The notes beneath the pieces were generated by a model. The model worked only from the letters and a program-made list of their open reading frames with translations, searched no databases and was not told the origin of the DNA. From Heptranchias perlo (taxonomy: Eukaryota), in contig NC_090346.1 in assembly GCF_035084215.1 (NCBI RefSeq), forward strand, positions 16,244,001-16,308,000: a stretch of DNA of 64,000 nt, in the 5' to 3' direction. The translations under genes were made by a program, and so were the position numbers. This document shows positions 20,701 through 22,347 of this stretch, one piece after another (within the stretch, counting starts at the first letter, position 1; each line of letters begins with the position of its first letter).

Positions 20701-22347
20701 GGGGGGGGGGGAATGGCCGAGGGAGGAANNNNNNNNNNNNNNNNNNNNNNNNNNNNNNNNNNNNNNNNNNNNNNNNNNNNNNNNNNNNNNNNNNNNNNNN
20801 NNNNNNNNNNNNNNNNNNNNNNNNNNNNNNNNNNNNNNNNNNNNNNNNNNNNNNNNNNNNNNNNNNNNNNNNNNNNNNNNNNNNNNNNNNNNNNNNNNNN
20901 NNNNNNNNNNNNNNNNNNNNNNNNNNNNACAATAATGGAGTTAGAATGGTTACAGCATGGAAGGAAGCCATTCGGCCCGTCAAGCCCATGGCAGCTCTCT
21001 ACAAGAGTAATCCAGCTAGTCCCACTCCCCCGCCCTTTTCCCGTAGCCCTACAATTATCCAATTCCAGTTGTTGATTAATCATTGTAAACAATTTTACAA
21101 CACCAAGTTATAGTCCAGCAATTTTATTTGAAATTCACAAGCTTTCGGAGGCTTCCTCCTTCCTCAGGTGAACGTTGTTGGAAATGAAATCCTCGAAATG
21201 AAATCATATTTATCAATCACAGAACAATGCTTGGTGATTACAGACAGTTTTTTCAACTGCCCGTTGCCAAGGCAATCAGTGTGCAGACAGACAGGTGTTA
21301 CCTGCAAGGTCTCCGAATATACAAATCACCAAAAAAAAAGAGATAGAAAGGTAGAAACATAGAAAAGACAGCAACTGACCCGTTATATTAAAAACAGATA
21401 ACATTTGTTCGCTGGTGGGGTAACGTGTAGCGTGACATGAACCCAAGATCCCGGTTGAGGCCGTCCTCATGGGTGCGGAACTTGGCTATCAATTTCTGTT
21501 CGAAATTGATAGCCAAGTTCCGCAACCATGAGGACGGCCTCAACCGGGATCTTGGGTTCATGTCACGCTACACGTTACCCCACCAGCGAACAAATGTTAT
21601 CTGTTTTTAATATAACGGGTCAGTTGCTGTCTTTTCTATGTTTCTACCTCTCTATCTCTGTTTTTTTTGTTTTTTTTTGGTGATTTGTATATTCGGAGAC
21701 CTTGCAGGTAACACCTGTCTGTCTGCACACTGATTGCCTTGGCAACGGGCAGTTGAAAAAACTGTCTGTAATCACCAAGCATTGTTCTGTGATTTATAAA
21801 TGCGATTTCATTTCGAGGATTTCATTTCCAACAACGTTCACCTGAGGAAGGAGGAAGCCTCCGAAAGCTTGTGAATTTCAAATAAAATTGCTGGACTATA
21901 ACTTGGTGTTGTAAAATTGTTTACAATTGTCAACCCCAGTCCATCACCGGCATCTCCACATCTTGATTAATCATGGCAATCAATCTCTATCAACTAGTCT
22001 CCAACAGACCCAGAGGTGAGGAAAATCCCCAGTGGTGGAGTTTTGGGAACTACAGGTCTAAAGTCACCCGTTCCTCCCGAGCCTGTTACACTCACCACGT
22101 CATGTCTCGAAGTACTCCTATACAAGTGTTATGTTGTGCAACGGGACATTTACCTGTAATTTATACACTGTCTTTGCATATTCTTTCTTCAGCAGGGCCA
22201 ACCTTTCTTTGAGCTGTAGATGAAATAAATAATTAATTGAGCCCACACTGTTTTGCCGTGAATGAGATAGGAGAGCTGGCAGTGTCGGTTCCGCTTTACC
22301 TGCTCCCTCGCTTCCCAGCTCAGGGGCTTTTTCACACTGTTCTCCAT
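2524..22347 (-). CDS. PALB2: Partner and localizer of BRCA2 (spliced gene; one internal exon not present in the assembly)
   Basis: GT-AG exons read by hand: 22347-22300, 22213-22154, [missing], 19460-17676, 16019-15654, 12862-12282, 11649-11560, 10286-10125, 8986-8901, 7283-7125, 6199-6083, 4615-4528, 3327-3170, 2755-2524. Coiled coil [20 protein letters not shown]; ChAM motif [20 protein letters not shown]15-type [13 protein letters not shown]-terminal WD40 exons; head-to-head with DCTN5 as in human. Confidence 0.96.
3170..3327 (-). CDS. PALB2: PALB2 WD40 exon
   Basis: 158 nt; GILFVLLSH...[19 protein letters not shown]. Confidence 0.92.
3560..3712. mobile_element. Decayed Penelope-derived palindrome
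   Basis: Inverted pair 3567-3601 and 3606-3639 of a degenerate (C/T)TGAnnA-AGGAT..GATA.CT-GAAA..TTAACC motif; tail resembles the 37.2-kb element. Confidence 0.5.
4528..4615 (-). CDS. PALB2: PALB2 WD40 exon
   Basis: 88 nt; [29 protein letters not shown]. Confidence 0.93.
4815..5250 (-). mobile_element. DeuSINE, diverged
   Basis: cacagcaagaccccattaacagc...aacgtctcatccgaaggacagcacct blocks. Confidence 0.65.
6083..6199 (-). CDS. PALB2: PALB2 WD40 exon
   Basis: 117 nt; [33 protein letters not shown]. Confidence 0.93.
7125..7283 (-). CDS. PALB2: PALB2 WD40 exon
   Basis: 159 nt, phase 2-2; [23 protein letters not shown]. Confidence 0.9.
7533..7720 (+). repeat. Degenerate ~63-bp tandem repeat, ~3 copies
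   Basis: cactcccag..caggt.tagcac.gg...gat..agag.aaagctc unit. Confidence 0.65.
7820..8058 (+). mobile_element. CR1 LINE 3' fragment
   Basis: Similar to 39990-40217; ends in the ccattctatgattcta tail. Confidence 0.75.
8901..8986 (-). CDS. PALB2: PALB2 WD40 exon
   Basis: 86 nt; [28 protein letters not shown]. Confidence 0.92.
10125..10286 (-). CDS. PALB2: PALB2 WD40 exon
   Basis: 162 nt; [15 protein letters not shown]...[10 protein letters not shown]...HTWAFDK|gtatgg. Confidence 0.92.
10525..10962 (-). mobile_element. CR1 LINE RT fragment
   Basis: [38 protein letters not shown]; frameshifted. Confidence 0.85.
11560..11649 (-). CDS. PALB2: PALB2 exon, start of WD40 region
   Basis: tttgtag|[30 protein letters not shown]|gttagt, 90 nt. 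Confidence 0.85.
12282..12862 (-). CDS. PALB2: PALB2 exon (second half of human exon 5 equivalent)
   Basis: cacccag|AG...GAG|gtaaaa, phase 1-0; [15 protein letters not shown] resembles human SPAFPILGTTPAFG. Confidence 0.82.
13236..14645 (-). mobile_element. CR1 LINE, RT to 3' end, degenerate
   Basis: [38 protein letters not shown] in broken frames. Confidence 0.9.
14646..15200 (-). mobile_element. CR1 LINE 3' fragment abutting the preceding copy
   Basis: [26 protein letters not shown]1 3'UTR. Confidence 0.8.
15654..16019 (-). CDS. PALB2: PALB2 exon with MRG15-binding FxLP motif
   Basis: ccaatag|GT...A|gtaaga, phase 1-1; [16 protein letters not shown]. Confidence 0.88.
17676..19460 (-). CDS. 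PALB2: PALB2 large exon (human exon 4 equivalent) containing the ChAM motif
   Basis: 591-aa ORF; tttttaag| acceptor (phase 1), G|gtgagt donor; [39 protein letters not shown]. Confidence 0.93.
19513..20728 (+). repeat. G-rich polypurine tandem repeat (GAATGGCCGAGGGAGGAAG(G)n and GGAGG/GCGAAAGGCGG units)
   Basis: Seen directly; runs into the N gap. Confidence 0.95.
20729..20928. other. Assembly gap (200 N)
   Basis: Run of n. Confidence 1.
21134..21172 (-). ncRNA. Minimal hammerhead ribozyme motif, second copy (sense to PALB2 pre-mRNA)
   Basis: Exact reverse complement of 21837-21875. Confidence 0.78.
21837..21875 (+). ncRNA. Minimal type-I hammerhead ribozyme motif (Penelope type)
   Basis: TTCAC-CTGAGGA-A-GGAGG-AAG-CCTCC-GAAA-GCTT-GTGAA: stem I, CUGANGA core, stem II, GAAA, short palindromic stem III. 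Confidence 0.78.
22154..22213 (-). CDS. PALB2: PALB2 exon 2, BRCA1-binding coiled coil
   Basis: 60 nt, ctacag|...CAG|gtaaat; [20 protein letters not shown] with L21, L24, Y28 and L35 equivalents conserved. Confidence 0.95.
22300..22347 (-). CDS. PALB2: PALB2 coding exon 1 ([16 protein letters not shown])
   Basis: 48 nt, aaaATGG Kozak context, CAG|gtaaag donor; resembles human MDEPPGKPLSCEEKEK. Confidence 0.9.

Follow-up and report, generated by a model that had tools for sequence, protein, structure and literature searches.

A truncated head-to-head copy of an abundant Neptune-type Penelope-like element in PALB2 intron 2 of the shark Heptranchias perlo

The stretch of DNA considered here, referred to below as the window, comprises 64,000 nucleotides of the Heptranchias perlo genome (assembly GCF_035084215.1, contig NC_090346.1, positions 16,244,001 to 16,308,000 of the forward strand), with coordinates being counted from its first letter. 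Three matches to the Pfam PALB2_WD40 profile, with E values of 5e-21 to 1e-7, revealed PALB2 to lie on the minus strand. PALB2 is accompanied by DCTN5 on the plus strand (Pfam match) and by a kinase exon at 59564-59899 resembling PLK1, an order shared with human. Several long tandem-repeat arrays, probably minisatellites, are found at 40500-52840; open frames 550-1,400 codons long run through them on either strand.

A contig of 1,227 nt (depth 7.82), from a presumed-RNA run on the same sample, joins PALB2 exon 1 (22298..22370, minus strand, this being the extent covered by the contig, with the coding part starting at 22345) to exon 2 (22154..22213, minus strand) across a GT-AG intron, while a contig mapping to exon 4 leaves about 100 nt unmapped. 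Given their equal length and depth, the two were taken to be one contig. A 22-mer from the unmapped piece was absent from both the window and the assembly. Exon 3, of about 100 nt, is missing from the assembly and probably falls within a gap of 200 N at 20729-20928 by a G-rich simple repeat. Because exon 3 probably lies in this gap, the insertion described below, which begins 179 nt into the intron that follows exon 2, is assigned to intron 2, in agreement with the original prediction of an insertion inside a PALB2 intron. Elsewhere, on another chromosome, an isolated 46-nt piece (L200:1501-1545, on G000:C29) is 96% identical to PALB2 exon 2; it stands without neighbouring exons or introns and is present in DNA contigs as well.

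The insertion takes the form of a palindrome within 21072-21974. Alignment of the arms at 21082-21496 and 21502-21927 over 415 positions yielded 410 identities, five substitutions and one 11-nt gap within a poly-T tract that is hypervariable across copies of the family, bearing out the expectation of near-perfect inverted arms of about 415 bp around a 5-nt loop (21497-21501). The coordinates likewise confirm the anticipated one-sided extension, with the 35 nt at 21928-21962 being present on the right side only and finding no pairing partner in the left arm, and the flanking direct repeat, a 12-bp sequence (TTGATTAATCAT) at 21072-21083 and 21963-21974 of which there is no third copy in the window. 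When element positions are counted backwards from the tail end, the left, tail-less arm (21084..21503, minus strand) spans about -35 to -468 and the right arm (21502..21927, plus strand) -461 to -35, whereas the tail (21928..21962, plus strand) corresponds to the leader found immediately before the ORF start codon in longer copies. The loop is natural element sequence belonging to the left arm, whose end lies at 21503, and 2 nt at the centre are common to both arms, constituting a microhomology. With an inverted copy and a 35-nt tail both in place, the proposed inverted pseudo-LTR arrangement is supported. On translation, both arms give the peptide KLIAKFR(N/T)...; no further pieces of this element were found elsewhere in the 64-kb window.

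The right flank of the insertion is part of an older interspersed repeat (21963..22123, plus strand; about 77-85% identity to its paralogues) that served as target. A 23-nt pattern from this repeat was located at 21 other genomic places. All ten paralogues fetched from among these 21 lack the element and contain a single copy of the 12-bp sequence, and in eight of the ten the bases before the empty site equal the left flank in the window. Because the empty paralogous sites carry one copy, the 12-bp repeat can be considered a real target-site duplication, with its left copy at 21072..21083 and its right copy at 21963..21974 (both plus strand); the last 2 nt of the left copy, 21082-21083, are also compatible with the left arm. 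The older repeat appears to have been split a second time at 20929-21071, 5 bp to the left of the Penelope site, by roughly 120 bp from a different repeat, for which a 4-bp duplication is possible.

A search of the same genome using the right arm returned 1,983 candidates. The 40 that were scored showed 97-100% identity, and ten of them, when extended, had up to 2.9 kb in common. One such copy, L033, contains a frame of 855 residues that ends in the same peptide as do the window arms. This frame includes a reverse transcriptase (RT) domain (Pfam RVT_1, E 5e-10), a cysteine linker, CHGNLCKTC, at residue 706, fitting the CX2-5CxxC pattern between RT and endonuclease, plus a GIY-YIG match at the C terminus (E 2e-4) that, at 21.9 bits, falls slightly below the Pfam cut-off of 22.6 yet presents the GIY-YIG motifs. 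Among named proteins, the nearest are those of sharks, at 79-96% identity. The prediction that the arms encode a GIY-YIG C-terminus is upheld through the L033 frame, as is a Penelope-like origin, given the RT, linker and GIY-YIG regions of longer copies with the same 3' end. Judged from these sequence features, the window palindrome would represent the 3' end of a Penelope-like element of Neptune type, with the linker feature also occurring in Nematis.

The single ORF with RT and GIY-YIG regions is found in L033 and not in the window copy, which retains the last 37 codons and stop in the left arm (21388..21501, minus strand; the end of the GIY-YIG domain) and the last 35 codons and stop in the right arm (21503..21610, plus strand). 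As only 35-37 codons are left, the window copy encodes no enzyme. In a near-full-length copy, the tail runs straight into the start codon, and partial tandem pseudo-LTR copies occur in the same family (L032, L106 and L184/L185) in addition to the inverted copy seen in the window. The shark gene model epn2 isoform X2 (P0015) was noted to contain a piece 96% identical to the element protein, reflecting either exonisation or mis-annotation.

The family is abundant. The ribozyme 35-mer has 12,412 exact matches in the genome and a 22-mer near the element 3' end has 48,410. When the first 100 hammerhead matches by position were fetched as 87 loci and four duplicates were dropped, head-to-head pairs were seen at 46 of the remaining 83 loci (window excluded). 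In 41 of these 46 pairs, one arm ends at the tail end and the other near -35, as in the window with its 35-nt tail, and 38 present a duplication of at least 8 nt, mostly 12-13 nt, lengths which, as computed by script, may include overlapping bases. Longer hairpins also exist, with arms reaching -668 in L098 and -1254, seen in part, in L090. Accordingly, the idea of a notable or rare event was not supported, with the window copy showing the modal layout of a family having tens of thousands of ends. The PALB2 insertion is a real but ordinary truncated copy of a very common Penelope-type element.

Each arm contains a minimal hammerhead motif. The type I motif at 21134..21172 (minus strand) is sense in the PALB2 pre-mRNA, as had been foreseen for one of the two, and would be cut between 21139 and 21138, presumably, by standard hammerhead numbering. 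The motif at 21837..21875 (plus strand) is antisense to PALB2, with a predicted cut between 21870 and 21871. The CUGANGA and GAAA cores, helices I and II, a palindromic helix III and H17 are all present, and both helices form in the predicted fold of the motif, albeit with a z of only -1.2. Among 295 copies of the motif in the family, selected on the core, the pairs of helix II are kept in 289-295 and those of helix I in 264-292, the variants including 22 copies in which one G-C pair has become A-U, as well as G-U pairs. No hammerhead was recognised by Rfam up to an E of 10; the matches returned were to miRNA hairpins and scored below gathering. As such, the assignment rests on the core motif and pair conservation, which together support the predicted minimal hammerhead with palindromic helix III. 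A non-LTR retrozyme was rejected as an identity for the unit, since head-to-tail tandem units were not found and the motifs are head-to-head on opposite strands.

In folding predictions, the sense hammerhead is paired over its whole 39 nt with the antisense copy, at a mean probability of 0.9995. A hand-built active dimer was assigned -20.7 kcal/mol, as compared to values of -23.4 for a pair of monomers and of -29.7 for the most stable dimer, such that the active dimer is not favoured by the model. Because the two ribozymes lie on opposite strands, no dimer can form within one transcript. The prediction is that the sense hammerhead stays enclosed in the hairpin duplex and does not cut the host RNA.

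Upstream of the ribozyme, TATAAA at 21795-21800 and an initiator-like TCATTTC (A at 21824) make up a predicted pseudo-LTR promoter (21795..21828, plus strand), with the TATA being intact in the right arm and mutated in the left. The predicted right-arm TATA and initiator (21795-21962) face PALB2 exons 2 and 1 in the antisense direction and, beyond these, DCTN5. Of 157 arms in a sample that was anchored on the ribozyme, with a single subfamily as the map, 88 have their start within -115 to -144, with a mode at -137 that falls 30 nt after TATAAA, at the initiator-like motif. More weight is given to unanchored counts of inverted 16-mer pairs across the genome (duplicated regions included), which came to 494, 952 and 6,920 in three separate 31-nt spacing bins, namely, that at the ribozyme cut site, the next and that upstream of the ribozyme. 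The last of these corresponds to short palindromes with two near-complete ribozymes, and twin-ribozyme palindromes are the commonest product seen. That ribozyme cleavage is the main maker of insertion 5' ends, an idea prompted by several ends at -84 to -89 among 30 loci, was rejected, as 494 pairs at the cut site stand against 6,920 upstream and no peak at the cut site was found across the three bins. Among 50 places listed for the cut-site bin, eight pivot on the AAGCTT palindrome, which means that they contain bases 5' of the cut. Cleavage may account for a minor class of ends.

How the two arms came to be joined was considered at 56 distinct junctions with both arms longer than 160 nt, pooled from the top hits and the position-ordered loci, the window being left out. 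An offset of at most 20 nt was seen at nine of the 56, as compared to 1.35 expected by re-pairing; none of 20,000 shuffles reached nine. These near-symmetric junctions, of which one (L155) is a complex case, are scattered along the element. Among the position-ordered pairs, the arm reaching further at the centre was the tail-less one in 21 cases and the tail-bearing one in 15, with six being equal, presenting no clear bias. Of 49 unanchored inverted pairs found, 38 were typed; the arms match in subfamily in 29 of 32 typed pairs, versus 5.7 expected, and are of different subfamilies in three, one of which differs at three diagnostic sites. In the window, a rare allele carried by seven of 99 other arms is common to both arms, and the substitutions are private or nearly so, such that an origin of the arms from two different subfamilies was rejected. 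In L221 (G000:C1:10761462-10761601), a short palindromic insertion, the arms differ at three subfamily-diagnostic sites, which suggests that two different RNAs were used in one event.

For the window, the following sequence of steps can be proposed. The endonuclease would cut both target strands about 12 nt apart. cDNA synthesis would be primed by one target 3' end at the end of the tail and by the other at a point 35 nt deeper. The cDNA without the tail would stop at -468, fold back on 2 paired bases and copy itself, the tail-primed cDNA would anneal to the fold-back copy and supply the tail, and repair would seal the hairpin unit. Since fold-back of the tail-less strand cannot supply the tail, a second primer is required in any model. 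Two-end priming is inferred because the two fixed ends match the two start sites bounding the tail reported in vitro for a purified Penelope-like protein of the Poseidon clade from the lizard Anolis, which, in the part of that report available, cuts and extends both strands at AT-rich targets using uncut RNA as template (PMC11167929). The identity of the arms may also come from gene conversion or a single active master.

Extended to shark Penelope-like integration at large, we give roughly an even chance to a scheme with two primers, one at the tail and one 35 nt in, in which cDNA mostly runs off at the RNA start just upstream of the uncut ribozyme and about one-sixth of long insertions are finished by fold-back. 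A somewhat doubtful yet serious contender retains the same two primers and dispenses with fold-back, with two long cDNAs, made from one RNA or from two RNAs of one master, running off a fragmented RNA close to a shared 5' end and being joined through microhomology. Short pairs do end together near the predicted start site, the three subfamily mismatches among 32 typed pairs point to two RNAs in some events, and the same 2-nt microhomology fits the joining of two long cDNAs indistinguishably from fold-back. However, such joining requires an RNA end at -461 to -468 in the window, distant from the predicted start, and has to accommodate near-symmetric long junctions at scattered positions. Should two-primer integration with fold-back be true, thousands of genomic hairpins would offer a readable record of integration steps. 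The family statistics themselves supply testable numbers, namely, two start sites that are fixed, run-off close to the predicted start and not at the ribozyme cut, and more symmetric long junctions than expected.

As to the host gene, the arms are predicted to form a duplex of about 410 bp in the pre-mRNA, with uninterrupted runs of 134, 125 and 124 bp; this would bury the sense hammerhead, and the intron would be spliced out. The left arm also contains an AATAAA in the sense orientation at 21128. An effect of the hairpin and its sense ribozyme on PALB2 expression, via editing, Dicer processing, cleavage or cruciform instability, is unlikely. The predicted duplex is long and lies 179 nt from the exon 2 donor, and long intronic duplexes are ADAR substrates. 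Yet on the PALB2 strand the antisense hammerhead copy is transcribed first, so that the sense copy, encoded on the opposite strand, emerges after its complement, with which it is predicted to be fully paired. Minimal hammerheads, for their part, need to dimerize, presenting no monomer and low dimer activity in vitro in the accessible portion of PMC4209133. In addition, PALB2 exons 1-4 are spliced without the element in one contig of presumed RNA from one sample, and thousands of like insertions are tolerated in the genome. Two presumed-RNA runs with zero cover over intron 1 have no bearing either way. The suggestion that the host transcript is affected by the twin ribozymes thus failed to find support, and the insertion is likely a neutral passenger, a reading that relies on the one presumed-RNA contig.

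Inverted ends and a target duplication give the unit a MITE-like look, but its being a DNA transposon, or a non-autonomous MITE-like or retrozyme-like unit that spreads by itself, is highly improbable, as the arms constitute the terminal part of an RT-endonuclease ORF, centres vary from copy to copy and the central 19-mer occurs once, as an exact match, in the 3.25-Gb assembly. MITE membership, which entails many copies with the same centre, was rejected on this count; the centre being unique, the unit was assembled on insertion and has not spread. That the palindrome is an assembly or read-inversion artefact is very unlikely, with a probability close to nil: an N gap and G-rich simple repeat do lie about 140 nt from the insertion, and no contig among those listed bridges the whole of it, the right junction being the one examined, but the arms differ at five sites and an indel, the ends coincide with the two fixed ends of the family, the loop is natural element sequence and the duplication is real, as the empty paralogues attest.

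The five differences between the arms amount to about 0.6% per arm, close to 0.7%, the median in a sample with a bias toward similar copies. At the mutation rate of the epaulette shark, given as 7e-10 per base per generation in the part of PMC10587355 available, the age of the insertion would be in the millions of generations, an estimate that ignores RT errors and borrows a rate that may not transfer. As such, the description of the insertion as young holds as low divergence only. Taken together, there is high confidence that PALB2 intron 2 contains a 5'-truncated copy, inserted head-to-head, of a high-copy Neptune-type element, likely made by two-end priming and likely a neutral dead-end passenger. 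The PALB2 locus itself is of little consequence, being one scar among thousands in a host gene apparently spliced normally; it is the family statistics that bear on how Penelope-like elements make inverted ends and tails.

Layout, tail, target duplication, junction palindromes and TATA/initiator motifs have already been described (PMC3846280; PMC8557442, in the sections accessible), as have hammerhead pairs about 100-700 bp apart on opposite strands (PMC4209133, likewise), leaving the family-level numbers alone of specialist interest. A literature search joining 'Penelope-like' with 'twin priming', covering titles and the beginnings of abstracts with subscription journals outside its reach, returned nothing on Penelope integration, and the accessible portions of a retrozyme preprint (10.64898/2026.07.22.740005) and of PMC6155905 held nothing specific to the PALB2 palindrome. 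As in the window, the available text on Pen2a_Av of Adineta vaga (PMC3846280) and the scheme in PMC8557442 present an inverted 5'-truncated copy at the 5' end, a one-sided tail of 30-40 bp, a duplication of about 9-12 bp, a junction palindrome, and TATA and initiator motifs in the pseudo-LTR. The C-terminal GIY-YIG and the CX2-5CxxC linker after RT described there for Neptune and Nematis (PMC8557442) are shared by the window family. The hammerheads of metazoan Penelope-like elements, as given in the accessible part of PMC4209133, resemble the window motif in being type I with a 5-bp helix I, an extra base between 9 and 10.1, G10.1-C11.1 and a palindromic 15.2-16.2; by contrast, the window motif has a 5-bp helix II with a 3-nt loop, and sharks are unnamed in that part. 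The two-strand priming seen in vitro, according to the portion of PMC11167929 available, concerns a Poseidon-clade lizard element and not Neptune; its start sites lie 111-118 nt into the ORF, whereas in the window family the start codon follows immediately on the tail and, unlike in the Anolis layout, the ribozyme is upstream of the tail. Finally, unlike Pen2a_Av as described in the available text, both window arms are about 460 nt with a 7-nt offset, making the whole unit one hairpin, and whereas that source derives junction palindromes from self-priming on an antisense template, the window data fit cDNA fold-back together with a second primer (PMC3846280).
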